A DNA stretch of 60,142 nt, filler included, from Globobulimina sp. (lineage: Eukaryota): the NCBI GenBank assembly GCA_003354225.1. It is 9 parts of 9 records of this genome, joined end to end, with 100 filler letters (N's around TTAATTAATTAA, not from the genome) between each part and the next. Parts side by side here need not be neighbours in the genome. Positions count along the whole stretch, not along the records: positions 6,710 to 13,317 come from PIVH01000266.1; 8 more parts are not named here. One strand, given 5' to 3'. The position numbers were made by a program, and so were the translations under genes. This document shows, one piece after another, positions 6,610 through 58,756 of this stretch. The notes beneath the pieces are model-generated. The model did not search any database and was not told the origin of the DNA. It worked only from the letters and a program-made list of their open reading frames with translations. The first letter of the stretch is position 1; the number at the start of each line of letters is the position of its first letter.

Positions 6610-6709
6610 NNNNNNNNNNNNNNNNNNNNNNNNNNNNNNNNNNNNNNNNNNNNTTAATTAATTAANNNNNNNNNNNNNNNNNNNNNNNNNNNNNNNNNNN
6701 NNNNNNNNN
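6610..6709. other. Artificial contig linker (N44-TTAATTAATTAA-N44)
   Basis: Identical 100-nt spacer with stops in all six frames. Confidence 0.98.
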
Positions 6710-9700
6710 ATTCAATGTATTTTCTTCATTTGCTTCAAACGGAGTTATTGGACTGTCATCACCCATATCAATCTCAACATTGTCGTTATTTGTTTTTTTA
6801 TTACCAGTCATTTCTAAATCTATCCGATTATTACCGGCACCAACTTCATTTGCAGCATCATCGCAATTTATTTGTTTTTTATCTAAATTATTTTTTTCGA
6901 ATTTAATATATCTCGTTTCATTGTTCCAGGTATATTGCGGTAATTGCTTTCCTTTCGCATGCAGCTCATCCTGAATCTCGTCAAATATCTCAAATAAAAA
7001 CTTCCCTGCATCCTCCTGCAAATTAGCCATATATTTCTCATAAAACCTGTGAACAACAAAAGAACCGAAACGCGAATCCAATTTCGACTGAAATCCAAAA
7101 TTTGCTGCTTCCACTCTCGCCAACATATAATCCGGATTATTCTGACCATGTACCCATGCTTGAGATGATTTGATGTCAGATATTCCCACTAATTTTCCCT
7201 GCACATATCCCCCACCAACACTGGCTGTGGTCGGTATTGTGTACGTATTGGATGCCACACATTTATGTTGCTCGTAATGAGTGCTATTTGATGCTGACAC
7301 GGAAGTTTCGACAGTTTCTCGTTCGTCAGCACCGGAACAACAATCATAAAGTACGAAACGTGGTATTTCCCGGATTTTATTATGGCCCAAAGAGAATATT
7401 CGGTGCGCGGCCTCTCTCGAAAACTGCTTATAATCACTGGTGCACAAATAACCAGGAATGCCATGACAGGAAATCACTAATATCAAAGCGTCATATTTTT
7501 TGCCGGCGGAAATATTCTCTTCCAAATAATCTGCGTTTGATTCGAGGAAATGTTTAAGTTCATTTTGTGTCCACGTCGTTTTAGCCACATCTTGCGGCAC
7601 TGGAAAAATGTCATAATTTAAGGTGCGACCAAATAAATCCACCATATGTTCGACGTCCCATTCAATTCCGTCTAAATTTGGCAAATATCCCTCAATATCG
7701 CCTGCGTCCCTTTTCTCGCCATCATAATCAGCAATGGCTACTAATAAAACTAGCGCGTTTTTGATGTATTTCGATTGTTCTGCCCGGAGTTTACGTGGCC
7801 GATAAGCACCAAAATAATATGCAATAACACCAATTAAACAAAACAGCAATATCACTGCAACTAATATGGTCACCAAAGCTTCCCATAATTCATCGAATTG
7901 CGGCTCATACCATTCCAATGGATGTAATAATTGAGGTTCTGTGCTACTTTCAATTGAAAATTGTATACTTGAATTTATGTTGGTTTTTGCAGAGAAATAC
8001 TCCCTTAATTTTTCTTGCGCAGTGTTTCTAAATAAATCAATATCCAATACGTGCAACAATGTATCGCAGGCATCTTTATTGCATGAGATTTGGCTCTCAA
8101 TTGGTATGCTTTTGCGATCATGAAAGAATTCCAATTCATTCTTATTTTGATTGTTTGCTATATCTCCAATTTTAACATTATTTATTTTTTGGATTAAAAG
8201 CCAAAAATATTTATATGCCAAACTGCTCGTAGCTGCAAAGTATGCCTTTTCTAGAACAATTGTAATGTCTTTGGTGGCATTCAAAACATTAGAAACCAGA
8301 TAATGAGTCTCTTCTTTTCGGCATTCTTCCAATAAATATGTGATATCAAACGACAAATCGTACGCATTGTCAAGTGTTGGTATTCGCGTCGGATTCGCTG
8401 TGGGACTGAATGTTGGAGCATTGGTTGGATCAGTGGTTGGTGCGGATGTTCCATAACAAGCATAATCAGTGAATTCTGAAATCCATATTGGATAAAAACA
8501 AGAAATGATATCATATAAATAATTCAATATCGGGAGGTAATTTATTGTGAAGTGATAGCGTACTTCGCATGGAGCTTTTTGTATTTCTGTGAAATAATAA
8601 GTAATGGCATCACATGGCAGTGTGCCACCAAAGACATCCATTGCAGACTGGTTCAATGAGACAAATTCTGCACTGTCTAAACTGAGATACGCATTCAATG
8701 GATTACAGTCCAGATTGGCAATGATGAAATTTGTGGGGACGTAAATTGAAACATCTTTGTTGTAGTTATAAAATTTAAAAGTTATATTATCTGAGTCGGA
8801 GTAGATATGGATTGAGTCGCACGCATTTTGCGAATAGCAACGAATTTCCATTTGTGATGCATTTTTTATATCGATGGTGGTTTCCAAACAGGAATATTGA
8901 GCGACACATTCCATTGTAATTGATTCTATATTTGTGGCGGTGATAACACTTTGTTTGCAGGATGACTCTCCTTCACATAAAATGGAAACAATAGTTGAGG
9001 CTGTAATATCTATCACAGTTTGCAAACAGGAATACATTGAAGAGCACGCGATTAAAGTATTATATGTCGCATTTGATATTATTTCACTGCCAACACACGC
9101 TCCATCACACTCTATGTAACAGTTTAATGTATTATTACAGGTTAATAGTTGTTGAAATTGAGTAAGTGGATAATAGCGATCATGTGTTATATTTGTCGAG
9201 GTCTCATAGAAAAGAATAGAATGATTAAAGTCTGAATTATTAAAAGGACGGCATGGCGAAATAATAATTGTTCCATTGTCTACACCGAATCCGATCAAAT
9301 CAATCCCGATGTTTTGGAGCAATGTTTCCGGCTCAAAATTGATTAAACGCAATGAATTATAATTTGTGGTATTGTTGGAATGTCCAAAACCAATAAAGTT
9401 GGAGCCATGACTTGGTGATGGAGTCGGATTTATTGTGTGACTCACTGTAGCATTTAATGTAGGGTTTATTGTGGGATTTATTGTGGGATTTAGTGTGGTG
9501 TTTAATGTATGATTTGTTGTGGTCGTACAGCTCATTTCAAATAAATAGGATCCGGTGGATTGACCGACTGCAATGTATCCACCAATTCCAATGGTATAAA
9601 AACCAGGATTTATATCATATATATTCAATATTGAGCGATATATGCAACTTGATATATATTCACATATGCAACTTGATTGATAGCCATCAATGAGAGTCAT

Positions 9701-12542
9701 GTTTGAGGAATAAAAATAAATATGCGGAGTTGAAGAAGATCTGCAGGGAGTAATTATTAGCTTAGATACAAAGACATCTAATCTTAATGAATAATAATTG
9801 GTATCATTAGCAGTGAGAATGGAGCCGATAATATTGTTAGTTCCACAATCTACCGAAGGGAATGGTGGTGGTGCTGTAGTTGATATTGTTGGTGCTGCTG
9901 TAGGTGCTGTAGTTGGTGGATTGGTTGGTGCCGCTGTCGGTGCTGTAGTCGGTGTCGATGTTGGTGCAGCAGTCCAAATGTTGGCAGAATACTGATCAAT
10001 GTTTGCATTCACATCCATCAGTTCGATACAATACGTTTCTAGGCAGTAATTGTTGTCCGCAAAATGAGTTTGTAAAATGGAAATAGTTGAATTTACATTG
10101 TATACAGCAATTAAATGATTTATATTGATATTGTGTTCGAAGATATTATCATTCATTGCAATGGTTCCACTGAAACCTTTTTGATAAATGAGCGAAAATA
10201 GGTTTTGATTGTGATGAAATAATGATTTTCTTATTTCAATAAAACTATAATCATCCTTTGAATTTATTAAATGAATAATGCCTTTGCCCACTCCTTTATT
10301 GTTTGAAAACTGCACAGCATCAAATATTACCATTCCACCATCGACAACAATCATGTCTGTAATTAAAGAATTGCCACTAAACACAGTGTCTGTGACAGAT
10401 ATCATGGCCTCATTGCTAATTCTAAACAAATTGTAGACTGCTTCATAATTAATAAATTCACAGTTAATAAATGTGACATTAGTTCCTTCGCCATCAAAAT
10501 GGAAATTTGACGATGAATGTTTTCCATCGAATCGGACATTTGAGAAACGGACATTTGCTCTGTGGAATATTTCAAACGATGCGTGGTTGGAGGTGATAAA
10601 TGTGAGATCTTTGATTGTAAGGAAACACTGCCAATGACATTCAAGAGAGATATTATTATTTACCGAATGATTTAAAAATGTGTTATCCATTCCCGCGCCA
10701 TGTATCTGTATTTGATCAAACTTAGAGCGGATAACATCATATAACTCAAATGTACCCTCTCCAATATCAATAATTCCGTTTGAATCATAATGGCCGCAGT
10801 CAGCGATATTTCCATGGAAACAATTCCATGAATAATTTAGTGTTTTGCACGTGGACGGTTTTACCGGATCACTGCAGTCCACCTCCAAACGCACTCGCAT
10901 ATCATGCCAACATCCATAACATTCTGACTCTGTTGTCCAGCAACGAGCACTTACGCTCTGTTTATATGTTTTTTAATATCAATTATCAATGATATGATAC
11001 ATATCATTTGAAAGCACTTAACTGCATCATTCATAAAATAGAATATTTTGTATGGCTCTGTATCTGTATAAAACCATTCAGAAAATGATGTGTTTACCGG
11101 GCAATCTAGGAAAGCATCACTAGTCGGATACGAACAGTGGGGTTCACCGCCAAGACATCCATCATTCAGCAGATTCGATGCATTTTTGTATGCAATATAG
11201 AACCTTTGATGGTCATATTTATAGTCACTAGGCTCAAATGCCACTGTTATAACCGGATTATAGCAAATGACATCTTTAGCGAGTGTGACACACAGCGATT
11301 CTGTGCGTGTATAGCCAACGAATGAATTGCTAAAAACAGCATTGCTGCTTATTGTTGTGATACTGCGTACATCAGACTTGCATTCGGGTGGTATGGCCGG
11401 CTGATACGTCGAGTTTGGAGGTTGCGGATACTTTTTACAACAGCTATTAGTTTGATGCAGATGTTGGTTTTGACAGATCGAGTCATAATCAAATTGTCCA
11501 GCTGAAGAGGAACAATTTCCATCGTCACATCCTTTGCTTCGAACATATAAAATATTGCGACTTGAATAAGGTGTCATTATGGGAGAAGTGGAGGGTGCAT
11601 TGGTCGGCGCCGCCGATGGAGAATTTGATGGTGCATTGCTGGGATGGCTGGTGGGGATGAAATAAGTCGAACAGATGCTGGCAGTTTCCATTCCAGTCCA
11701 GTCAACACAAGCCCAATCCCCTTTTTCTTGATTTGGTAAAGCTGAGATAGCGCACTGCGAAGTAAAATCCGCTGTACATTTAAGAACTGCTCGACGATAG
11801 GAAGTTTCTGGACTGCAATCATCCGTACAATGTATATTAACATCATTTAGTCCTTCTACAGCATATATTATCATGTCCCGCGAATTTTCACCGTTTTCAA
11901 AAAACAAGTTACAATTATTTGTATTTCCATATAATCCATCATTTGGACAATAAATATGTGCATATTGCATGATGACACTGTAAATATCACCCCCTAACAC
12001 ATTTATATACAATGTGGAGGCTGCACCATGGACTTTAATAGACCCACAACCCAGCGACATCGAGCAGGTGATGTTACAAATTGCGTTGTCTGGACAATTA
12101 ATATTCGCTCCTAATAAATTGTACGAGCTGTTACGTCCAACAACTGTTAAATTACCAGTTCCTGCATCTTTCAGGACAATATTTATGTATTTATGTATTT
12201 ATAAATGGGTTGGCGCAGTGCTTAACTTATTGTGGCATGTGCACACGCCCCATATCCATCACATATGACATTTAAATCTGAGGCGTTGCCTCCATCTGTT
12301 TTAGGATAAAAAATAAAATTAAAAAATATTAATGTAAGTTGTTAACTGATTGTTGCATCGCTACAGCCGCTCCCAAGAAAATCTGGAGGCGCTCCCCCTC
12401 CACTACACAGAACTGTGCATCTTGCATTGCCTAAACAAGTGACATTTGTGTTATAACAACCGTACTGGCCAGAAATGCATGATATATTCTCACAATAAGC
12501 ACTTTTAACCATAGACAATAAAAATATCATTGTGATCCTCAT
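6710..12542 (-). CDS. Type I membrane receptor-like protein: Cys-rich, beta-helix-like and PTxxPT ectodomain, one TM helix, cytoplasmic caspase-like (peptidase C14) domain; 3' end truncated
   Basis: Signal peptide MRITMIFLLSMVKSAYC at 12542. Introns 12346..12296, 12226..12168 and 11022..10958 join ORFs 12342-12716, 10951-12060 and 6662-10900 in frame (>=1,886 aa). TM ALVTILVAVILLFCLIGVIAYYF followed by RPRKLR. Caspase motifs NALVLLVAIADY, LVISCHG (His 7463-7465) and LYDCCSG (Cys 7337-7339). Confidence 0.85.
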
Positions 12543-12813
12543 TGTTGATTGCTTTGAAAACAACTTTAATGCCACAAACAGAAAGCAGCACAATAAGGTT
12601 GCTGCGCCATTTACAATCCAAACTAAGTGGTGAGTATTTTTTGCAAATCGTAGTAAAATTTGCAATTGGTATGTTAAGAAATACAAACCATTTAAGTGAC
12701 ATTCTGGGCAAAGCATTGGTTCTTGAAATAAATTCGCATAATTTCGTGATGGATCATAATCATTTGCTGCATATATATGTTATTAAAAACATCAGATTCA
12801 AATAAAAAAGAAA

Positions 12814-13212
12814 TCAAATGAGAATTGCACTGTCAGATAAAAACAATTGCGTGGGAAACAATTGCGTGGGATTACCTGCAACGCTTTGATTATAATATTG
12901 TAGTATTGTATGGTTTTTATTGCGCCATTCGTGGACTTGAAATGATGAGCATTGTGCGGTGAGAGTAATGGAAGGATACATTTGTGCAGATGCGACACAT
13001 AAATTTGAGTAATAATTATAATGGCTTGACGCAAATGAGATAATATTCATGGCGAGTTCGCTGGAATTCTTACACAATTCAATGGTCTCTGAGACTGAGT
13101 AATAATTAGGATAATGATCATTATCACATTTGTTAGTGCATAATCTTGCAATTGTTGCATTCGACCTAGTAATGACTAAGATATACAACAGCAGAATCAC
13201 GTGCAATATCAT
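12814..13212 (-). CDS. Small putative secreted Cys-containing protein or first exon
   Basis: Hydrophobic N-terminus MILHVILLLYILVITRSNA followed by Cys-spaced sequence; no recognisable family. Confidence 0.3.
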   Translation of the reverse strand: MILHVILLLYILVITRSNATIARLCTNKCDNDHYPNYYSVSETIELCKNSSELAMNIISFASSHYNYYSNLCVASAQMYPSITLTAQCSSFQVHEWRNKNHTILQYYNQSVAGNPTQLFPTQLFLSDSAILI

Positions 13213-13317
13213 TAGAGTTTTCCTATTTGACCTTGCTTTTGCTCATGATCAACTTTTTTTAATCATTTGTGAATTGTTAGAGAAAAAGCTTACGTAAATG
13301 TTCGTCTAATCCTTAAT

Positions 13318-13417
13318 NNNNNNNNNNNNNNNNNNNNNNNNNNNNNNNNNNNNNNNNNNNNTTAATTAATTAANNNNNNNNNNNNNNNNNNNNNNNNNNN
13401 NNNNNNNNNNNNNNNNN
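13318..13417. other. Artificial contig linker
   Basis: N44-TTAATTAATTAA-N44. Confidence 0.98.
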
Positions 13418-16400
13418 CTTGCTCTTTTTTTTCTTTTTCTTTTTTTTACGTAATTTTCTCGTTTCAGTGTCTTCCTCATTTCCCAATATATCGTAATCAT
13501 TGTTACCGTCTTCCTGTTGACCAAATTGATCCATATGATGCTGACGCGGATGCTGCGAATCCTCTTCTTTCAACCTCCTCACTCTTTTAATCGGTGGCTG
13601 GTTATCATTCTCATTCTCATTGTTCTCCTCATCCAGCATCAATTTCCTTTTCCCATTGATTTGAGGTCGCGGTTCAATCCAATTAATCTGCTTCGATTTT
13701 AACTTTGCCTGCGCTGCTTTCAATTTATTTTCTTTTTCTTTCTTCAAAATTAAATTTTTCTTCTTCTCAATTTCTTTCCTCTCTTTTTCCAATGTTTTGT
13801 TTAATTTCTTCTCCTCCAACAACCGCTTCCTCTCATTTTTGATTTGCTGGTTTTTCTGAAATTGCAAATGTTTTTTGGCATTTTGCAACAATTCGTTTTT
13901 AATGTGATCCAAATGCTGCTTCAACTTATCATGCGGTATTTGGGTATGTGTCTTCTTATTAATTTGCAACCGACGATATAATCTCGCCGCATTCTCCAAC
14001 ATTTTCATCACATTTTCAATCTGTTTTAATGTTCTTTTTTTCGGATCTTTGCGCAAAATATCGCACGCATATTCTTCTTCGATCAATGCCAAATTATACA
14101 AATACAATTCCTGGGTCGGATTATAGCGCAATATTTGATATAAATGCAATTTTGCTGCAACAAAATCCTTTTTTGCAAATAATGTCCGCACGATATACAA
14201 CGGAATATCGCCCAAATCGTAAGTATGCGAGTTTTGCATTAATTTTTTCTTCGCTTTTTCGTAACATTTGAGCGCCAAATCCCAGTCTTGATTGACACTG
14301 TGAACATGACCTAAATTGCATAAAATATCTGAACAGGAAATACATTCTCGACTCAATTTATGCAATATCCGCTGGCTTATACCCACATTGTCACTGCCAT
14401 GCGTTGACCCTTCGCACGCAATGGCAGCTAAACCATGCACCGCGTACACATTGTTCTCATTCACCACCAATATTTGCTGATATTTTTGCAAGGCGTCATG
14501 TAGCCGTCGATAGTAATTACTGTTACTCCGCTTGTAATGATTTAACATATAATTCGCAGATATCAACTCAGAATATTCATCGTTGCGAATCTCTTCAACG
14601 ACGCGATTATCTTTTTTTAGTACGTCTATCTTATTCAATATAGACTCACATTCCGTACGACGGCCAATATACTCATAAATACGTTGAATGTACAAATAAG
14701 CATTTAATTCGATATCAATCTCCCCAAATTCGTGCGCTTTGCGGGCGGCATCTTCAAATTTCCGGATCGCGTCCATATATTTCCCACTCCGATACAAATA
14801 CAACGCATTACACAATATCGCCTCGATAAACGATGGACAGTTTATCAATATCTGGCGATAAATCTTGCGCGCTTTCTTGTAAAATGACAGCTTATCCAAA
14901 ATGCGCGCATAATTATATTGAATGATGATTTGGTGCGCTTCAAACTCGTTATTATTCTCATTCGTGATCGCTATCAATTCCTCGCAGAGTCTCTTCGCTT
15001 TCTCATAATCGCCCAATTGATAAAATAACACAATAATATTATTAAACAGTTCAAATGGAATTTGCGTATTTTGCGCATTCATAATAGCCTTCGCCCGCAT
15101 ATATTTTCCAATGGCAAAGGACGGGTCTTTCAGTTCCGTGATCTCCGCCAAATCAATGTATAAATCCACCTGGGTCGGATTCAATTGTGTAGCGCGCAAT
15201 AAATTATCTTTCGCCTTTTCCAAGTCACCACACTGTCGACAGACATAGGCATAATGACTCAGCACGACATGATCAGACACTGTGTTATTATCATCGTTCA
15301 GGTCTAAGATACGCATCAAGCAGTTCTTGGCATGGCTGATCTTATTAAAATAGATATACATTTGCGATAAGCCGAATAGAGACAAAGTAAACTGCGAATC
15401 TAATAAAATGGACTTATAGTACCATTTTATAGCTTCGTTGTAATCCAAGCAGATATGATACATTTTAGCAATCACATAGCAAGCCTCCGATTCACATTTA
15501 CTTAATGGATGCTTATTGTTACTCATCAGGTTATGATGCGGTTTTATATCCAAACCGCTCATTATATCACGTTCAGTCGGCTCCTTACGCAACAAATTGG
15601 TGATTTTCTCGCATAAACAATAAGCAGTGCCGGCCCACATTTTGGTAAATTCGATATTGTCGCAACTGAACCCGACAAAATTCGCAATTAACACCAATAA
15701 CTGCGGGTTATTGGGACTGTATAGCATGGCATCGGTGATCTCCTTCAACGCCTTACGCATTGAGCTTACTTTCTTGTTATTGCTGTTATTGTTATTATAG
15801 CTGTAATCGTATTGATTTAGATATACCAAAGCCAGTCCAATACGGCTCTTAATCCCTACATAGCCCACTTTGCCATCATTGCGTACCTTATCCTACAAAA
15901 ACAATCAATGCAATCAATGACAAACAATATGGAGCAAGGATGTGCAGTGTAGGTAACTATTTTTTTTGCCCTTTCGAAAGCATGTCTGGCGATATCAAAT
16001 TCTCGCAATTTGAGCGAACTGATACCAATCCCCAAATGCACAAAGCCTAAATAATGGCTATTGTCATGGTTATTATTGAGATTCATCTTTAATAATTTGG
16101 TGAAATTGGTGAGCGAATCCTCATAATCGCCAGTGGCGTACGCTAAGGTTGCAATGCATAACAAAGAGATGAAATTGGGCTCTCTTTGTAAGGGTATTTT
16201 TTTAGGATCGTTGTCTTGATTATGTAGGTTTGCGTCATCATCGTCGTCCTCGTCATCCTCTTCCATCTCTTTCCATGAGATGGCTTTCTGTAAATTGTGC
16301 TTGGTCTTCACCATAATGGTCAATATGTCTTCTTTCTTACGTTTGGCCTTTTCAATGCTGATTAAGCCCGCTAGGAAATGCAAGACCATGTTGTATTTCT

Positions 16401-27720: not shown

Positions 27721-30700
27721 ATGAATATCCGCGATATATCAACAAATGTGTTAAGTGTTTCTGTCATTAATTGTTTGTGTGCTAATTATAAAAACAAAAT
27801 GTAATCAAAACAGTATTGGACCAGATCGGATGATGAGAAATTGGAACAATTGATTGATAGAACAGTATTACAAGTATTAAACTCGCGGAGTGTCAAAGCT
27901 TTGTGGAATAAACAGAGCCACGTTGAAAAGTTATACGATGACAAAACATTTCGATTGTTTGTGGATGCCATTTATGAGGGAATTGATGGGCAGACATTTA
28001 TAAACAGCGCACTTTACACATTGTATAAACATCAAATCGACCAATCTTTGAATAAAACCAAACCCGAAAAAAAGAAGAAATTGAGCACAGACAAACAGAT
28101 ATTTAATCAAATGCAATGTGTGGAATTTATTGAGTTTGATACGGACCGGTCCGGTTCCATTGATTTCAGTGAATTTACGCAATATTTCCACACAAAAAAT
28201 ATACAAATCGGCAAACAGAAACTGCATAAAATGTTTCGTGACATTAAAACCGACAAAGACAGTGAGGGAATAAATAAAAGTGATTTTAATAAATGGAAGG
28301 AATCCTTGCAAAATAATTGCATATCAACGCCCAAAATAAAACAGAAACGAACATTAAGTATTTCTGGATTGAATGTGGTCGGACTATGGATTGTTTGGTT
28401 CAAACCTCATTCCAAAATATATTATTTCAACGAAGGCGTTGGACTGAAAAGCTTTGCTCAAAAAAGAAGGGTTATAACAACAATACATTACAATGAGGAG
28501 GCAGACGCTGACAATAATTTTAAATGGGCGCGATTTGTGACCAAAACAAAAGATATGAAGCATAGATTAGGCGCAGATTTTCGACGGAACCATGCCAATT
28601 TAAGCAAGGCGAAACCAAAGGGATATTGGCATATTGTGGAGAATGATGATAATAATGAAATAATACCGAAAAGGGATTTGGATTTAATATTTATGTTATT
28701 GCATTATTACTATTTATCACATATCGAGGAGCAGAATACCGCGCTGTTTGGTGGTAATGACGATCCATTGAGGAAACATTTGATATCTCATCAGCAGAGA
28801 GTACGCGATGAAGAGTCATCCATTGAACACGACACGTTAAGAGATACAAACGCAAATAAAGCATATTCATTGTTGATTGGTGGTGATAATGGAAAGGGAT
28901 TAAAACGCATAGAAATGGGCAATAAAATTATATTTCAAATCAAACAAAATAAATATCGACTAAAGTACTGGAATAAGAGAGGAAAGTATGTCACCACAGC
29001 TTTGGTATTAGAAAAATTGGAACATAAATCAAAAAGGCATCATTCCACCAGAAAGGAGATAAAAGCAAAGGAGTTATGTTATTTGAGATTTAATACAGAT
29101 TTTGAGGTCAAACAGCTCGAATGGCAGTGGTTTGATAATGACACAAATTCGTATATGGATTATGACAAAAAGCAACGGGTAATCCAGGAGTTGGAAGCTA
29201 GCTTTTTAGGGAATGATGAACGCAATTTCAACCCAAAAGAATTTGAATTATTAAATAATTGTTTATTGCCAGAATTAAAAAGTTATATGGTTGAAAATAA
29301 TATTTCGCCGAAGGATGGTTATATATTTAGCATTGAGTTTGCTTCGGGTATTCATGACAGAAAAATAGCTTCGATGTCTCAAGTCTCATTTGATAGATAT
29401 GACTCATTTGCGAGGAAAATCAGACGAATGACAGACGGAACAGATTCGTTATTGACACATTATCAAAATTCAAATATGTTTTCTGATCAATGGAAGGCTG
29501 CACGCAAATTATTGACAAAAGCTCAACAAAAATATTTCTTTTCATATATTGTGGCCATTGCCGCGAAAATAAAATATATTGATATTGAGTTTGCGAATCA
29601 AACCGTATTACTGCCATCGGGGAGTAATGAGAGTGGCAAAAAAACACAGGATTTTATGAATATCGATGCGAGAGATGTTGAAATTGAACAAAGTAATTAC
29701 AGTGATTACGACGGATACTTAATACCTCAGGACAGATACTTTGAGAATCCAAATAAAACAAAAACGAAAATATTAAGGAAATATAAGATAACAAATAAAA
29801 GAGAATATCGATGGTTTCAAGATGGTGAGGGACGAAAAATATTATTTTCCAAAGAACAGGCACAGTTTTTGCGGTTTGCGGAGTGTATAAGGTATGGTGT
29901 TTCTGTATTTATTATATATAAAACAAAGTTATTACATTGGATGTTTAAAGGAAATATGTGTTGGAGAGTGAATTGGGCGACACATTAAATACATTGTGGC
30001 CATGGTATCAAAATAGTTATCATTCCATTCCAAATGTTGATGACTCCTCAAAATATAATAACTTAATGAAGAATCAATTTTTTTTGCAATCATGGGATGA
30101 AGAACGAATATTAACCATTTTGTACCAACATAAGAAAAACTTGAAACAAATAGCTGAGCGAGATCCAGATGGCAATGATGACAATGATTCGCCCATTCGG
30201 CATAAAAGGAAATTTGCAGCATATCTCTTGTTGGACAGTTCAGACGTTTTGAGAAATTTAAATATATTAAAGGCACAATTGGATCCTTTGTTGCATTGCA
30301 TTTCAGATAAAGCAATCTCCAAATATTTAGATGAACATTTCGAAGCATCTGGATATGAGCGAGAAATATATAAAATTATCTACAAACAACAAGTTAAGAA
30401 ACATCCGGCCGATTTTCAACACAAAATTGACAAATATGTATCGGAATGCATTCGGGGCAAAGCCAGAGATTCCAAAACAAAGGAGTTTTGGCAGCAAAAT
30501 ATACAAGAAATAAAAAAAAGAAAAATACGCAAAAGAAAAAGAAAATGATGAAAATTTTAAGTTTGAAGAAGGACATTTATTATTTAATGAACATTTCGAC
30601 AATATTCAATATTTAGATATTGATAGATTTCAACTGCCAATCTTTGAAGAATTTGTTCGTTTCTTCTTTGTGGCATCGGATGAAAATCGGTATAGAAGAA

Positions 30701-33965: not shown

Positions 33966-36900
33966 ATGCATTCTAACATTCCATACAGAAACATACAATC
34001 ATCAATAAACGGCGATGATGTGAATACAAAAGTCGTATCTTCATTGGATAATATTTACACCAAAGAGCAAACCAAAGAAAAAGCTGATAAAAACAAATGG
34101 TGTTGTTTTCATATCAAATTGCCGATTACTGGCAAATTAGAAAAAAAAACCTTAACATTGATTGTAATTACATTACTCATCGACGCATTGGCTAATTTAT
34201 CCTTATTTTGTACAACTCACAAATGGTGGTTTTTCAATGGCCATCCTTTGAATTATTTAACATTCCATGACCTATACAATGATTTCACTTCATTCCATTC
34301 AGGTTAACTTCATATAATCCTTGCACAGCTTACACCACATAAACACATAAAAAAACACACCGAACAGGTACTTCTGATACAATCTTATTATGGATATTAC
34401 GTTTATTCTCGTTATTTATCTTAAGTTGCATTGCCATATCAAAAGGCGCACCGCCTGAATTATGGACAGATGAACAAAATTGTTGCTGTATATTTTCATG
34501 CTGTAAATCAAAACACAAACACAAACACAACAACAGTCGACGCAAAAACAGACGCAATACCGACAGCTCAGTACAAAAATTACTATCAAATGAGAATGAC
34601 ACTGATCCAATGCGGTTATCTTCAAATATTGGCATTAAAAACGGCACTGACAACAACAATGCATATGAGATTGAATTAGAAGAAGAGATTGAAGGCATTG
34701 AAGATAAACGTAGCTTACAGCCTAAATTTGATAATAAAAATGATTTGGATTCGTATCAAAAACGCACTCAGAAATGCGTAGCATACAAATACGCCCTCTT
34801 ACTGTTAATGTTTTTGCTTTGCACAGCATTTCAAGGCTATATCGGCGTAAAATGCGTAACCTTCGACTTCCTATCCAATGACCAACCATTCCATTATGAA
34901 ACTGTCCAAGCCATACTATACGGTCTCAGTGTATTATGCATCAACATTGAAATCTTTTTATTCAAAAACTTCGTAGACGCGGCAACAGATTTAGGCGATC
35001 ATATTCTGGTAAAAACATTACATCCGCACCCATTAAAACAGCGCAAAAAAATCAAGTTTTGGTGTAATTTATGTCGGTCCAGAGCCAAATACTGCACTTA
35101 TCGATGCGATGATTGTTCCTTTGATGTCTGCTCATCCTGTTATAAAAAGGAAAAAAAGAAATTAAAACTCAAACAAACTCAGAAACAAAGCTCCATGAAA
35201 CACGGTGGTAAGTTAGCAATGTCCATCAAATTGGATGCCGCGTCAGAGTCATACAAGTACGACAACAGTAAGGTTGCTCCAGAAAATGACCCAACACAAC
35301 GGTTGCAGCAAGACATGACCTCAACTGCTTATATGATGCGAGCGCTGTCGTTATGCAAACCACATTCAACATTGATACTGACTGCGTTTACATGTTTGGC
35401 CATCAACTCCACCGCCAACTTATTGCTCCCACAATCGCAAGGAATGATATTGGATAAGATTGTGAACCATGAAAAGTCTGAATTTATTTACCAGATCAAA
35501 TTTTTTCTAACCCTGTCCGTCATCGTAGGCTTATTCGGCTCTATACGCAATTTGTGTTTTGCCTTCACGATGCGACGGCTGATGGTGTCCATTCGTTCCT
35601 TATTATTCAGCAATATCATCGTGCAGAATATTCAATTTTTCGACGATATGAGTACTGGAGAACTGATCAGCAGAATGACCAACGATGTCGGCGGCATGTT
35701 GTCGCCGTTACGCACCATGCTACAAACTACATTATCGAATATAATCTTATTATTTGGCGGCTTGATAATGTGTTTTGTGACCTCGTGGAGGCTGTCAATG
35801 TTGGCGTTTACCACCGTGGCGCCGGTTTTATTTTTAACGGGGCAGTATGCGAAATGGAGCAAGAATATCAACCGTGCGATTTGGGCAGCGTTTGGGTCCT
35901 CGACGCAAATCGCAACGCAAGCTTTCAGCAATATTCGTACAGTGCGCGCTTTTGGTACAGAACGGAAAGAGATCGGTAATTATGATAATGCGTTGCAAGA
36001 GATCTTAGAGCGGGGTCTGATAAATGCAATTGCGTCGACTGCCACCTTTGCATTGACCAATTACTTGGATTTGGGCGCTGGAGTATTGATATTATACTTC
36101 GGCGGTGTTTCTATTTTTGATGCGGACAAAAGTAATTATGAACTGACTATTGGCAAATTAATAACTTTCCAGTTATATTGGAATATGATCAACAATGCAT
36201 ACAAGGGATTGCAGAATGTATTGACCTCATTCACGCGCGGCGCCGGTGCAGCGCAGCGAGTGCTGACTTTGTTGGATCATATCGGCAACAAACAACATAA
36301 CTTATACTCCGGTTTGGAAGCCAAGGATGCTGCGGTTGGTTTAGATGGCAATATTTATATTGAAAATGTGCATTTTCATTATAAATCGCGGCCAGACACG
36401 GAAGTGTTGACTGGCATCAACTTGCATATCAAACCTGGGCAAGTTATAGCATTGGTGGGGCGAAGTGGCGGTGGCAAGTCAACGTTGATTCATCTGCTGA
36501 TGCGATTTTATGACGTGACGAAAGGAGCAATATTATACAACAAAGAGAGATTGCCGTTGAATGAGATGAATTTGACGAAGTTGCGCCAGAATATTGGCCT
36601 CGTCGCGCAAGACACGCAGTTGTTTGATTGCACGATCAGAGAGAATATAGTCTATGGCTGTGCTGACCGGGAAGATGATGATATCGCATTGGAGGAAATT
36701 GTCCATTACAGTAAGTTGGCAAATTGTGACGAATTTATTTCCAAATTCGAAGAAGGGTATTTGACGCGTGTCGGTGAGCGAGGTATTCGGCTAAGCGGCG
36801 GACAGAAACAGCGGATCGCCATCGCGAGGATGTTGATGAAACGGCCGCGTGTATTGTTTTTGGACGAAGCGACGTCGAATTTAGACACGGAATCGGAGGC

Positions 36901-37294
36901 ATTGGTACAGGCAGCAATTGATAAAACAATATGGTACGATAAGGATAGGGATGATGAGAAGTATGAGGATAATAATAAACAGTATAAGTTTAAAGCAAAT
37001 GCAGTTATTTTAGTGGCGCATCGATTGAGTACAGTGATAAATGCAGACAAAATAGCTGTTATTGATGGTGGTAAGATTGTCGAGTTTGGGAATCACGAGG
37101 AATTGTTAACTATTCGTAATGGTGTTTATCATAAATTGGTTGAAAGGCAAATACAAAGAGAAGAAAATCAATTGGATCAAGATAAAGAAGAAGAGACAGA
37201 CACAAAAAAGAACGATTCAAAAAGTAAAAAGAAAAAGAATAAAATTAAAGTTGCGTCTGATAATATTGATAGTTTGTTTGATAATAACGATTGA
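33966..37294 (+). CDS. ABC transporter subfamily B half-transporter (TAP/ABCB9-like) with N-terminal TM extension and Zn-finger insertion
   Basis: Intron 34303..34367 joins ORF 33924-34307 to 34610-37294. TMD with FFDDMSTGELISRMTND; Walker A GRSGGGKST, signature LSGGQKQR, Walker B VLFLDEAT, H-loop VAHRL. Confidence 0.92.
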
Positions 37295-48942: not shown

Positions 48943-51900
48943 ATGATTGCACAGCATAATGAACACCAACATAATGAACATCATAGCTCTCATCACTCGA
49001 CATCGGGTGTGTAATATACTATGTTTCTCCGACCATTTACATTACACTACATATTAAACCACAGATAATCGACATAAACCACACAAAAATGACCGCGATA
49101 GAGACCGCGACAGAGACCGAGACCGAGATAGGAACAGAGACCGAGATAGGACCAGATCAGATCATATACATCGAAATAACAGACATCATAGCAACGATCG
49201 AGATGATCGTCGAAACCGAGACAGAGATCGAGATCGAGACCGTGACAGAGACAGAGACCGTGATCGATATCGACATGACAGAGACCGCAATGAACGGCAA
49301 AACCATGACCGCGACGATCGAAGAAACTATGACCGCGACGCACACCGAAATGGCAGAGGTGGTGGTCGTGGCCGTGGTCGTGGTGGTGGATTCCGCGGTG
49401 GTTTTCGAGGAGGATTCCGTGGCCGCGGTGGTCGAGGACGTGGGCGAGGTCGTGGTGGTGGACGCGGTGGTTTTGTGGGTAAGGAAAAATATGAAATACA
49501 AGAATTAAATCGTCGCTTAGTGGCAAACATTAAGATGTTAGCATTGGACAAACGCGGTGCTCAGCCATTGCGTAAATGGATCGATCGACAGACCAATTCG
49601 GAATATCACGAGGCGAGATTCAAGAAAGGCGCGAGGAAGATACGCGACCACGGCGTCTCCGTGAATGAAAGCATCAAAATCCATCAAATACCGCCTTCCG
49701 CGCAACTCACCTTCGAAAAAAATAGCGAATCGTGGCTGGACGGGCTGCCTATTGCGGATAACCGGAAACCGCTATGTTTCAAAAGGAGCGTATTAGTGAC
49801 CACCAGCTGCATACAGATCGATGATAAGTCGTTGACTGTGCATCAATACACCTTTGATTTCGTGAAAACAACCAATACGGCCACCGACGAGAATAAAAAC
49901 ACAAATTCGATGGAAATCGATGATAAAGAACAGGTAAAAGAGGTCGTTAAATCTGAAACTTTAAGTGTACAAACTCAAAATGACTGCAGTGTCGACGAAA
50001 AACGACAGGTATATTCCTTCACATTTTCGCCACTCAAATCGTTTCTGGGCAGTACTGTAATAATCGCATTTTTCTTATAATTTAGGTATATTTCGGCATT
50101 AAGCTGAAATTACGGAAGCACGGCTTCAATCCGCATAACTTCGACAACCGCCACATTTTCTCGTTCAGCAACAACGTGCCGAGCGACCCTCTGATTCGCC
50201 TCCAACACCGCAACTACGCCGTGACTCTGCAACGGCAATACTCGACCGACCCGCAGCTACAATGTCAGATGAAACAAGAACAGGACCAAACCGCCGCTCC
50301 GCCTCGGCACAAATGCAACTTTTCAAAGATTTACAAGCAATGCAGTTTGCAATTCCATCAGCAAGGCCTCAACATTTTGAATCGAAAGCGCTTCAACCAA
50401 GCGCATTATTGCAAGTTGCACCGCAACGAAGAGACATTTTACGCCTTATCCAATTTGCAAGAACACGAAGTGTGGCGTCAGAACGGCGCCTCGTTGGACT
50501 ACCCCGACTTGCGCTTATTGGTCGGCTATAAATCCACCATCGTGCACACGGAGCAGATGATCATTAAAAACCAGATGAAGCACAAACTGATCTGCAAGCA
50601 CTCGGTGCACGATCTGATCAAACACAACGGCGTGGAGGCAGTGGACCAATTTATCCGCGGCAAGCGAGCCATAACGAGCTATTCCGACCAAATCGTGGAA
50701 ATGGTGGGACTCGACACCTCGTTGAATTTGGACAGTACCTTCACAGCGCGCGACGGCGAGACGTCGTACCGCGAATATTACAGAAATAAGAAGGATTTCC
50801 GCAGCAAGAAGAGGGTGCATTTGATGGAGCAGCAGGAGCTGGGATTGGTGGTCCACCATAAATTTGAGGGCCGCGGGCCCAATCGGAGGGTGGTGGCGGT
50901 GTTGCACTTTTTGCCGCAGTTATTGTACGTGATCGTGCCGGTGGAGCAGCACAACGATCAGACCAAGCAGATGCTGCGCCGGCGCAGCCATCCGAGCGCG
51001 CAGACCATTATTAGTAAGGCGTTGGCGATCAATCGGTTGCTACGCGACGAGGCGAAGAGTGTGAAGCGGCTCTTCACTACGCACGATACGCCCATTCAAG
51101 TGAAGGGGTATTACCTCGAACCGCCCTTGATTTGTTTTAAAAGTTAGGCGGTGTTTTTGTGTACAATTTTGGATCGGAAATAGATGTTTTTGTTTTTTAT
51201 GAAATGTAAGGCCGTGGTGGCATTCGTAGAGAGAGTGCGGTGACTTTTGGTGGTAAAATCTGGCGCGATGTGGATGCATTTTGGTATAATTTGCGTTCGA
51301 TTTATGACGAAAAGGCGAGTGAGAGCCGCGTGGCTGGCATTGATTGGGCCATTTGCTTCGATGCGAATTCTGGCGACGGAGAAGGCGCCGCGCGCGAAAT
51401 CGAAAAGTTATTGTTCCAATTCAACAAACAACGGAGATTCGTGAATGCGCCGTTGAGGGCTCCGTCGATTATCGGGTTGGATTACAACAATTTGCATGCG
51501 ATCCGCGGCAAACTGCGGCACTCCAATTTCAGTGTCAGTGTCTTCATATTGCCGCAGCATAGGATCGGTTGCAAGTATAAGGTGGACATTACTCGCCATG
51601 TACTGCACGAATGTGAGCCGCAAACCGCGTTATCGACGCCGCAGAAACACAAGAAAGGAAACGGTGTTCGGAGGATATCGATGCGGAGTGGCGCCAATAC
51701 GAATAATCTGAGCATGGACCTGCAATTTATAAATGTGTCGACAGTGCGAAAGAGGGCCGCCGTGTTCAATGTGTTTGAAACGGTTTTGCTGAAATCCAAA
51801 GTAATTTTGTATAGCATTTGTCCGCAACTTCCCTGCCAACAGTTCGCGTATCGCAGTCTGTGGATGGTTGGCATCAAAATCTTGCGCAAAAAGGGTGGCT

Positions 51901-52850
51901 GCCATTTGTTGGTATTAAACTGTAACAGGGCGCCCTTTGTCGGCGCCTTGAAATATATGACGAATCACAGTGCGATGATCAGCTCGGAGCAGGACGTGAT
52001 TCCGCAACATATGATGCAACAGTTAAGCTATGATTTGCTGAAAACGAACGTGTCCAAAGTGATTGGCAGCGATGGCGACGAGGTGCTGCCTTCCAACATC
52101 GTGATATTGCGGTGTAGCGGCGGCGACGGACTGTTAAAACAAATCATATCCAAAGAAGTGGCGGGTTTTAAGAAGGCGTTGTATGAGTTCAGCAAAGCCG
52201 AAAAGGACATGATTAAGAAAGCAAATAATAATTCGCGCAAATGGTACCCCGGCTGCATTTTCAGTGTGTTGCAGGAGCACTGTCCCGATGCCTGGGGCTT
52301 GCCATCACCATCAACATCAACATCGACATCAAACACAAAAGTGGTTGGCATCGAAGACTCGGCGGAGGCGATTTGTGTGAATCGCGGCATCACTTCGTCG
52401 CAGTACTTGGATGTATTCATCTCTTTGCCCGCCAGACAAGAGCGGCTGTTGTATACTCGCGTGGTACGGCTGGTGACCTTAATGGATGAGTACAACAATG
52501 GACACACAAAGGATGGGCGCGCAGATAAAGCGGATCGGCTCTCCGCATCTCCCCAATTGCTCTCCGATTATATCAGTTTGGTCTATTCCTCCATTTGGGG
52601 CTATTGCCTCAACATTCCATTCCCCAAAACACCAAATTATCCCTCTCCCATCAACTTTGCCCAACATTACGCAACGTGGCAATACGGCATATTGACAAAT
52701 GAGGACACCTCGCTCACCGAGTTAATGATTGACGTCGACAACGCCAAGCCGCGGATATGTAATATTACCAAAAATACTCAAAATACTCAAAATAATCAAA
52801 ATGATCACAATAAGCAAAATGATATTGTTATGAAAAGAAATGATGATTGA
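48943..52850 (+). CDS. Divergent Argonaute/Piwi-family protein, ~1,234 aa, RD- and RGG-rich N-terminus, predicted non-slicing
   Basis: Exons 48943-49006, 49065-50008, 50086-51142 and 51211-52850 (GT-AG) give 3705 nt open. PAZ-like STFTARDGETSYREYYRNKK..LVVH..HFLPQLLYV; linker VKGYYLEPPLICF; MID-like VFILP..LQFINVSTV..VLLK; PIWI-like WMVGIKI, PSNIVILRCSGGDG..EVAGFKKA and YPSPINFAQHYA. Confidence 0.8.
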
Positions 52851-57052: not shown

Positions 57053-58618
57053 TTATGTAGTATTTATCGATCCGTAGTCCTTGACAGTTGCTTTTATTCT
57101 CATTGTTGATCTGTCCAATGATTGTTTCCAATTAAAATAACAATTCGAATACATCATACATCCAAATACAACGGCACTCACTAAATAACCAATTGTTGTC
57201 CCACTCCAAACCACATATAATCCATTCAACGTATTTCCATCCACTTTGTAATAAAATAAAATAAAAAGAATGATTGGTAACATAACAATATATTGCGACA
57301 CAATTGCGACCGTTGCCATTATCTTTTGATATCCCAATGCTCGAAAGATGGATGCAAACATTGTGTACCAATTAAATGTTAATTCTCTGACCATTAAAAT
57401 TATAAAAACGTCTGACGCCAACACCGTTACATTGTCATCATTGCTAAATATTTTCGGAATGGAATGTCGAAATGCTAAAATAATAAATGTCATTAAAATC
57501 AATACGAACACATTAATGTAAACAGATATTCTGATGCTTCGTTTTGCAAATTGAATAGAGCCACAACCCATACATTTGCCGACTTGTATTGTCAATGCAC
57601 AACCCATTGATTCTGTGATTAATCCAAACATAACGTGAACAGATATGACAACTACAGTTACAGCCACCGCCGTTGATGGATCATAAATATAGCCAGACAG
57701 AATAATAATGGACTCAGCAACCCACCACATCAAACTCATTTGGACACAACCGGGCAATGTCAAGCTCAAATAGTCATACAATCCTTGTTTGGAGCAAACC
57801 ACATTAAAGAATGGCTGAATAGGTTCAAATAAATATCCATATCCTTTGTGCACCATAACAAATACGGCAAGCAGCAGCGATGAGAATATGGTTAAATCGT
57901 AAACAATGGCTGTTGCAATATACCCCCATTTAAAGTAATAAATACACAGAAAGTTCAATGGTATATTTACCAGAAACGGCACAAGAACAACCCATACAAA
58001 TTCTGTATTTAGATTTATTGATTGGGCGCATCTTTGCAATATTGAGATGAAAGAAACACACCATGCGTTTGGTATTAATGCATGGCAATAATCATTAATA
58101 TATGGATATAATTCCATTGGCTGTTTTAAAACATGACATAAAATATAACCACCAAACCATTGAATTACTGACAGTGGCAGCAGTGCTAAAAATATTATAA
58201 ATGCGGCTCTTTGGACATATATCTGTAATAAGTGTTGATTATTACTCCCAATGCATTCTGGTACCAATGTGTACAAAGCACTGGTTAGTCCCCACCCAAC
58301 ACTCGTTGACGTCACATTGGAAAACGTTCTGGCTAATCCTGACGCTGCTAATAAGGTCGCTGTTGGTGCGCTTGTCGTATTGTTGGCGTCTGATAAATTG
58401 CCAATAAATATGGATGGTATCACAAAAATCGGCAGTACCTCACAAAGCATTGCTAAGCTGACAGTGGTTAATATATGTAATAATATTTTTGCTTCATCCC
58501 ATCCGGACTTTGCAAGTATAAATGAAGCATCACTCCTTCCTTTGATACTATCACTTGAACTTCTGCGATTTGTGTGAATTTTGCGCTCATATAACGGACT
58601 GGTTAGTGGTGACAGCAT
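57053..58618 (-). CDS. MATE family efflux transporter
   Basis: ~12 hydrophobic helices; LAASGLA..NVT..VGWGLTSALYTL, QRA, LTLPGCVQMSLMWW..E, QVGKCMG, IFSND, FRALGYQK, GLYVVWSG. Confidence 0.88.
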   Translation of the reverse strand: MLSPLTSPLYERKIHTNRRSSSDSIKGRSDASFILAKSGWDEAKILLHILTTVSLAMLCEVLPIFVIPSIFIGNLSDANNTTSAPTATLLAASGLARTFSNVTSTSVGWGLTSALYTLVPECIGSNNQHLLQIYVQRAAFIIFLALLPLSVIQWFGGYILCHVLKQPMELYPYINDYCHALIPNAWCVSFISILQRCAQSINLNTEFVWVVLVPFLVNIPLNFLCIYYFKWGYIATAIVYDLTIFSSLLLAVFVMVHKGYGYLFEPIQPFFNVVCSKQGLYDYLSLTLPGCVQMSLMWWVAESIIILSGYIYDPSTAVAVTVVVISVHVMFGLITESMGCALTIQVGKCMGCGSIQFAKRSIRISVYINVFVLILMTFIILAFRHSIPKIFSNDDNVTVLASDVFIILMVRELTFNWYTMFASIFRALGYQKIMATVAIVSQYIVMLPIILFILFYYKVDGNTLNGLYVVWSGTTIGYLVSAVVFGCMMYSNCYFNWKQSLDRSTMRIKATVKDYGSINTT

Positions 58619-58756
58619 TGGAAACACAGACCAGACAAAACAAGTGTGTTAATTACTAAATTAAAAGTCCTAAATTAAAATATTAAATTAGCAATATTGA
58701 ATAAGTCATAATATATGTAAGGATAAAAAGCATTGATATAAACATTTTCCGGATGT

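Follow-up and report, generated by a model that had tools for sequence, protein, structure and literature searches.

A caspase-fold protease joined to a putative single-pass receptor in Globobulimina sp., a member of a very large foraminiferal family

Structure of the gene

The stretch of DNA analysed here (the window, 60,142 nucleotides from Globobulimina sp., GenBank assembly GCA_003354225.1) consists of nine contigs of about 6.6 kb each, joined by N44-TTAATTAATTAA-N44 linkers, and the gene in question is situated on one of them (PIVH01000266.1; positions 6710-13317, 6.6 kb), the coding sense of which lies entirely on the minus strand. It encodes a large, putative type I membrane protein carrying a caspase-fold protease domain behind its transmembrane helix. 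An original prediction, made from the sequence alone, had described at 6710-12542 a giant single-pass receptor fused directly to an intracellular caspase-like protease; all the elements it listed were found, on the minus strand, and its interpretation is partly supported. The truncation of the gene at the contig end, the very large family to which it belongs, the published foraminiferal caspase-like proteins and an S1 pocket of doubtful Asp specificity were absent from it.

The exon structure was compared with contigs of four public runs, designated X1 to X4. The first three are recorded as 'RNA?' by guess only, and the gaps in their cover (about 9583-9803 and 12677-13118) carry no meaning. 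Contigs of these three runs are 90-95% like the locus, and those of X1 and X2 come from a related organism, not from the locus itself. The X4 contigs are DNA-like, at least 99% alike, and tile the locus, reading through the introns.

Four exons run from 12542 down to 6710 (minus strand, as all features of the gene given below), and the spliced frame extends over at least 1886 codons without a stop. Exon 1 (12347-12542) comprises the start codon (12542-12540), a signal-like peptide and the first Cys-rich repeats, its donor being backed by an intron-less X2 contig; exon 2 (12227-12295, 69 nucleotides) is supported by the open spliced frame and by X1 and X2 contigs; exon 3 (11023-12167) codes for Cys-rich modules of the ectodomain and for a PT linker (about 11581-11655), the repeat of which matches at E 5.6e-4 and stays under the Pfam cut-off. 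Exon 4 (6710-10957), read from the sequence, holds the remaining ectodomain, the transmembrane helix, the protease and a tail, and is open at the contig end; the expectation that 6710-10957 is one exon, with most of the ectodomain, the helix and the protease together, was thereby borne out. Concerning the extent of the gene, an ATG is present at the predicted start, 12542, but 6710 proved to be the end of the contig and not of the gene: no stop codon is reached and the C-terminus is missing. Since an X1 record extends 43 letters beyond 6710, the gene continues past the contig end.

The three introns are 51-65 nucleotides long, have GT..AG ends and a guanine plus cytosine (GC) content of 16-32%. 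Intron 1 (12296-12346, 51 nucleotides, GTTAAC..CAG, 16% GC) is missing in an X2 contig (joint 12293/12393), while intron 2 (12168-12226, 59 nucleotides, GTTAAG..AAG; joint 12167/12259) and intron 3 (10958-11022, 65 nucleotides, GTTAAG..CAG; joint 10934/11023) are missing in both X1 and X2 contigs. It can safely be stated that the gene has a close relative which exists in an intron-less, in-frame form. One X2 contig (1456 nucleotides, 7476-8931) reaches from the ectodomain across the transmembrane helix into the protease, of which it covers the first half, and the indels listed against the X1 and X2 contigs include ones of 18, 18, 12, 6, 6 and 3 bases, each divisible by three. The introns start with GTTAAC or GTTAAG and not with the commoner GTAAG-type sequence, which is possibly a habit of the lineage.

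In such a highly fragmented assembly the fusion might have arisen from a chimeric contig or from read-through of two genes. However, most of the ectodomain, the helix and the protease share one uninterrupted exon, the DNA-like X4 contigs tile the locus at 99% identity or more, and the same architecture recurs in 116 other proteins from independent sources; an artefact of this kind is therefore considered extremely improbable. Chance is excluded because the open frame is long and has homologues at E values down to 4e-84.

Upstream of the gene there is a further minus-strand open frame (12814-13242); its 142 codons begin at 13212 with a hydrophobic peptide that resembles a signal peptide, and Pfam gave no match for it. 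An X2 contig has a joint from 13141 to 12556 in which 584 bases are skipped and a single other letter stands between the two sides; the ends of this joint are non-canonical and its shorter side has only 23 letters. With this joint the frame upstream would stay in phase with the main ATG. It may reflect a 5' exon, a deletion that the relative has undergone, or a join made during assembly. An additional upstream coding exon spliced at 12873/12768, in frame and with canonical ends by eye, was also considered and was dropped, no contig supporting it. Along the last 200 bases of the contig (13119-13317) the summed X4 contig depth is about 4959, compared with 4-12 elsewhere, and each of the four runs has contigs that break at 13209-13213; the segment looks like a high-copy repeat, the edge of which coincides with the ATG at 13212.

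Membrane topology and ectodomain

Only one segment of the 1886 residues reaches a Kyte-Doolittle value of 1.6; its best 19-residue window (7823-7879) peaks at 3.24. The 15 residues before this helix are acidic, and the 21 residues after it carry 6 Lys or Arg, in agreement with the predicted single helix and basic stop-transfer. The 1478 residues N-terminal to the helix contain 70 Cys (4.7%) and 33 NxS/T sequons, as against 6 Cys and 3 sequons in the 364 residues C-terminal to it, and the predicted Cys-rich ectodomain of about 1,490 residues with PT linkers was accordingly recovered, at about 1,480 residues and with PT repeats that stay below the Pfam cut-off. This asymmetry of Cys, sequons and charge speaks for an outer position of the large part and an inner one of the protease. 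At the N-terminus a short hydrophobic peptide follows Met-Arg. A signal peptide had been proposed here; the hydrophobic, signal-like stretch is present, but the call was made by eye and the start codon is uncertain. The indicators point to a type I membrane protein (N-terminus out, C-terminus in) with a putative signal peptide and one transmembrane helix. The uncertain N-terminus would leave room for a reversed or secreted topology with the protease facing outward. However, Cys and sequons are three times as dense N-terminal to the helix as beyond it, the helix is followed by basic residues, and enzymes of the caspase fold require a reduced Cys, so that we regard the reversed arrangement as highly improbable.

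When four segments of the ectodomain were searched against Pfam, no family was found above the threshold, only the PT repeats below their cut-off and matches at chance level. In the Asn-rich region (9953-10957) a search by language-model features (Atlas) returned ten best named matches which were all of the Beta_helix/NosD type, at a score of 0.92 with few shared features. The beta-helix-like character originally proposed for this region thus has these matches in its favour but no Pfam match, and a right-handed beta-helix is to be taken as a lead only. Closer to the membrane, tblastn revealed a Cys-rich repeat region (8693-9175) common to many members of the family, and a PT-rich linker (8375-8449; Pfam PT match below the cut-off) precedes a juxtamembrane domain, which makes up the last 165 residues before the helix (7886-8380). 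This domain was modelled by AlphaFold2 from 11 sequences with a predicted local distance difference test (pLDDT) value of 83.8 as beta-alpha-beta-beta-alpha-beta, that is, ferredoxin-like. Its topology would fit a SEA domain; this specific assignment is not supported, the Foldseek matches being weak and generically ferredoxin-like (template modelling score, TM-score, 0.3-0.49) with one mucin SEA domain at rank 41. The Atlas search with the membrane-proximal part of the ectodomain gave no usable match.

The membrane-proximal Cys-rich module also occurs in three proteins without the protease (P0174-P0176), one of which combines it with discoidin and VWA domains and has no transmembrane helix, while the other two have C-type lectin domains, PT repeats and 3-4 transmembrane helices. 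This distribution points to domain shuffling among the surface proteins of these organisms.

The protease domain

The domain behind the helix (Peptidase_C14, 6926-7750) was identified by Pfam, by an AlphaFold2 model, by Foldseek and by a profile search of the PDB. In the exon-4 translation (P0001) the hidden Markov model (HMM) of PF00656 matches residues 1075-1349 with 23.7 bits (gathering cut-off 21.4; E 4.5e-5). A profile built from 52 members of the family found 40 PDB chains at E<=10, 39 of which were animal caspases, and neither metacaspases nor paracaspases were present among these 40 chains or among the Foldseek matches listed. The model, based on the family alignment (pLDDT 88.1, predicted TM-score 0.85), is an alpha/beta fold with a central six-stranded sheet. 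All the Foldseek matches listed from the PDB were animal caspases, caspase-8 being the best (E 1e-10, target-normalised TM-score 0.79-0.80). The proposed caspase fold thus agrees with the prediction of the structure.

The motifs named in the original prediction are all present, SCHG at residue 1168 of P0001, DCC at 1210 and, in the small-subunit-like C-terminal half, QLPQY at 1343. The catalytic His (residue 1170, codon 7463-7465) and the catalytic Cys, the second Cys of DCC (residue 1212, codon 7337-7339), are aligned to the dyad of caspase-2. Conservation was counted over 189 domain rows from 173 proteins, taking at each position the rows that have a residue there: all 169 rows have the His, 170 of 172 have the Cys, and all 172 have the Asp two residues ahead of the Cys. 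As judged from this conservation of the dyad, the family represents a caspase-fold enzyme held under selection for catalysis. A caspase fold can also serve as an interaction platform, as in cFLIP, and a pseudo-protease or scaffold would agree with an S1 pocket unlike that of caspases; against this, the present protein has both residues of the dyad, and the near invariance of these makes a platform-only role very unlikely.

The active-site pentapeptide of caspases, QACxG, in which Gln lines the S1 pocket, was not found. The motif is DCCSG, with the invariant Asp aligned to the Gln of caspase-2 (the five PDB alignments displayed cover only the large subunit of caspase-2). In caspases the specificity for Asp is conferred by two S1 arginines, Arg179 and Arg341. 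By comparison of motifs, the position of Arg179 would be taken here by Leu (150 of 156 rows) and that of Arg341 probably by Lys (135 of 166 rows), and the invariant Asp before the Cys presumably resembles the S1 acid of the Arg/Lys-specific C14B enzymes. An Asp at the position of caspase Gln283 argues against Asp specificity. Thus the S1 pocket is probably not that of a caspase, Asp specificity is doubtful, and the P1 preference is probably for a residue other than Asp. We file the protein under the caspase fold (clan CD, C14) as nearest, by profile and fold matches, to the caspases proper; because the active-site motif of caspases is lacking, it is not filed as an Asp-specific caspase.

The large- and small-subunit-like halves are separated, at the place of the inter-subunit linker of caspases, by a disordered linker of about 40 residues (7181-7303, AlphaFold2 pLDDT 44-68), which in the family is 31-90 residues long and rich in Asp, Glu, Ser and Lys. 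Its end (7181-7220) is partly structured in the model and has a G-K...D-(I/V) stretch with Lys in 117 of 173 rows and Asp in 94 of 169. These Lys and Asp residues, standing just before the small-subunit-like half, are candidate autoprocessing sites of either charge class. The domain is followed by a low-complexity C-terminal tail (6710-6862), cut by the contig end; the median tail in the family is 37 residues, and in some members a SAM domain stands at this place.

Pfam found no CARD or DED prodomain of the initiator-caspase type anywhere in the protein, and no TNFR cysteine-rich repeats, death domain or adaptor either. The protease begins with its first strand only about 15 residues after the helix; thus the transmembrane helix and the ectodomain occupy the place which CARD or DED has in the initiator caspases.

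Predicted homodimer

The protease domain was also predicted as two copies, and a median score of 0.48 was obtained, compared with 0.01 for the best control. At least 21% of the contacts were common to the runs, and the pLDDT of the partner was at least 70. The mark applied here had been reached by 21 of 30 solved pairs and by none of 23 solved single chains in the microbial calibration set, and by 17 of 29 pairs in the eukaryotic one, where only 1 of 7 pairs without an older solved relative reached it. The last beta-strand (6917-6937, domain residues 287-293) is at the centre of the predicted interface, with a symmetric contact 290-290, and pairing through this strand is the caspase mode. In the dimer check proposed earlier the score thus exceeded its controls and the interface lay on the last strand, with the reservations that the model may be remembering known structures and that one run scored 0.00. 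Since caspase dimers have been solved, the result shows likeness more than binding.

The foraminiferal family

Among 1.84 billion cluster representatives (50% identity) an exhaustive family search detected 670 relatives at E<=1e-3, 234 of them at E<=1e-30. Twenty relatives were looked up: 16 were named, all from Bolivina argentea or Nonionella stella, and four were ENA, NCBI or Logan records. The 155 proteins gathered include the present one; 124 of them are informative about the helix, their stretch ahead of the domain being longer than 60 residues. In 117 of these a transmembrane helix lies within 60 residues upstream of the protease, and among the seven misses two at least (P0010, P0053) are artefacts of threshold or coordinates. 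Peptidase_C14 was recognised at E<=1e-3 in 34 of 42 long relatives, and the other Pfam domains of these 42 proteins were Kelch (10), PT (8), C-type lectin (3), SAM (3) and RCC1 (1), which fits the expectation of relatives with variable ectodomains. The SAM domains are C-terminal to the protease (P0071, P0035, P0045). By its sequences the foraminiferal family is very large, with a constant transmembrane-protease cassette and a varied ectodomain.

Other features of the window

The eight copies of TTAATTAATTAA mark the linkers at 6610-6709, at 13318-13417 and at six further sites, each of which puts stop codons into every one of the six frames; a gene that reaches a join is truncated there, and adjacent pieces are possibly not neighbours in the genome. 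On the other eight contigs no second C14 domain was detected, the HMM of the family matching the six-frame translation of the window once, and 225 of the 228 tblastn high-scoring pairs fell on the contig of the gene, the other three being short, weak and outside the protease part. The long open frames on the other contigs code for a TPR-repeat protein cut by the linker (13373-15892, minus strand), an EF-hand protein (27805-29985, plus), an ABC transporter with a C1 domain (34343-37291, plus), a Piwi-domain frame (51210-52847, plus) and a MatE transporter (57056-58648, minus); all five are eukaryote-type genes. The Piwi-domain frame overlaps in part the most GC-rich stretch of the window (0.43-0.49 at 48-52 kb). 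Rfam found no family in the window.

Comparison with known systems

The best structural and profile matches belong to the initiator caspases of animals (caspase-8, -9 and -2, CED-3, Dronc; MEROPS C14A). The present protein shares with them the two subunit halves, the flexible linker, the His/Cys dyad, the predicted last-strand dimer and the position of the recruiting part N-terminal to the protease, but has a transmembrane helix and an ectodomain instead of CARD or DED, and, unlike caspases, DCCSG with Asp in place of Gln. With the metacaspases, paracaspases and orthocaspases (C14B; Arg/Lys-specific) it has in common the invariant Asp two residues before the catalytic Cys, yet by profile and fold it is not closer to the meta- and paracaspases.

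Animal death receptors recruit caspases through adaptors, and initiator caspases become active on dimerisation. The logic of the death receptor-FADD-caspase-8 complex (the death-inducing signalling complex) is the same as the one proposed below, inasmuch as an extracellular event at a single-pass receptor gathers caspase domains under the membrane. Here, unlike in that complex, receptor and protease are on a single chain, and the resemblance is a functional analogy only.

Foraminiferal caspase-like proteins have been published before. According to the main text of Klim et al. 2018 (PMC5982838), the C14 proteins of Reticulomyxa filosa branch with the animal caspases and not with the metacaspases, and our PDB and Foldseek results agree with this placement; ETO10778.1 of Reticulomyxa appears as an outgroup in the text of PMC10959488, and a Reticulomyxa caspase-like protein is used in the same way in passages of PMC10565124. 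In a word search of the text of PMC5982838 (its supplementary files, which possibly list architectures, being outside the search) 'receptor' and 'extracellular' were absent and 'transmembrane' was used for the mitochondrial potential only, so that, as far as this text goes, it describes neither the membrane-receptor architecture nor how large the family is. The nearest described architectural analogue is found among the cyanobacterial membrane metacaspases, in the metacaspase-CHASE2 protein of Trichodesmium, which in Asplund-Samuelsson et al. (PMC3501461) was proposed as a receptor-protease with the sensor outside and the metacaspase inside; a cytoplasmic caspase homologue is joined there through transmembrane helices to an extracellular sensor. 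It differs in being prokaryotic and multi-pass, with an N-terminal protease of another C14 branch, encoded by single genes and not by an expanded family. Our full-text literature searches found no membrane-anchored or receptor-type caspase in protists. That the family exists is known; as far as the searches reach, neither the receptor-fused architecture nor the size of the family nor the modular make-up of its ectodomains has been described.

Proposed mechanism

The gene structure, the indicators of topology, the fold, the conservation of the dyad, the family and the architecture were computed. From these we infer activation by clustering, the nature of the substrates and the biological role, for which the original prediction had suggested immunity, cell death or signalling. 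As an overall explanation, a type I receptor having a caspase-fold protease inside, which is switched on by engagement of the ectodomain, appears to us somewhat better than an even guess; for the particular step of induced proximity through ectodomain engagement the chances are about even. In the resting state the membrane-tethered protease would be monomeric and inactive. A ligand or a surface engaging the ectodomain would draw neighbouring molecules together, their protease domains would pair through the last beta-strand as in caspases, and the paired proteases might then process the linker between the subunit halves. Once active, the protease would cut substrates in the cytosol, at the membrane or close to it. 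Induced proximity is proposed because it fits several features: the protease is tightly tethered, its linker is flexible, the cassette stays constant while the ectodomains vary, and some members add an oligomerising SAM domain.

The protease may instead be tethered without being gated by a ligand, the ectodomain serving for adhesion or for attachment to the matrix or the test, while control would come from inside (Ca2+, pH, phosphorylation or partners) and the enzyme would remodel the cortex or the pseudopodial network, with no part in signalling or death. The ectodomains are in fact built from modules of an adhesive kind, namely PT/mucin-like linkers, Kelch and C-type lectin; these recur in protease-free proteins together with discoidin and VWA, and no ligand-binding family was identified in the protein by Pfam. 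However, a strictly kept helix and protease under a freely varying ectodomain is the pattern expected of receptor families, and the caspase-type dimer interface and the SAM additions fit control by proximity. An adhesive anchor of this kind is in our view rather unlikely, though far from negligible.

Several observations weigh against a receptor switched on by clustering. The Pfam score of the protease exceeds the cut-off by no more than 2.3 bits, and its single sequence had no match in the PDB at E<=10. One of the three dimer runs scored 0.00, and the success of the prediction may owe something to the memory of solved caspase dimers. Because the module shared with P0174-P0176 occurs without a protease, the ectodomain could be adhesive or structural and not a ligand sensor. 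At the N-terminus the signal peptide was called by eye and the start codon is uncertain, as the joint 12556/13141 provides an alternative upstream start; the missing C-terminus may hold further regulatory domains. The listed indels include single-base changes (11209, 12052, 12054), there are 9 further indels beyond those listed, and the X1 and X2 contigs which lack the introns are RNA by guess only and represent a related organism.

Biological meaning

Caspases are usually viewed as soluble enzymes recruited by adaptors; here the recruitment is hard-wired into one chain. If activation by clustering holds true, this would be the simplest known caspase signalling module and a natural test of the induced-proximity model, and it would give a hint of how a giant single-celled organism senses contact, prey and microbes. 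The protease cassette is small and directly assayable. The family is relevant to how animal caspases arose, since it is their nearest relative outside the animals. It is possible, though doubtful, that foraminifera have hundreds of one-chain 'receptor-caspases', in which a constant transmembrane-caspase cassette is combined with fast-diversifying ectodomains (lectins, Kelch propellers, beta-helices and Cys-rich solenoids); these would make up a repertoire by which prey, microbes, symbionts or self and non-self are recognised at the cell surface, with signalling by direct, adaptor-free proteolysis. In that case, because the family comprises the closest non-animal relatives of animal caspases, activation by membrane proximity may be old, and either older than the death-fold adaptors or parallel to them.

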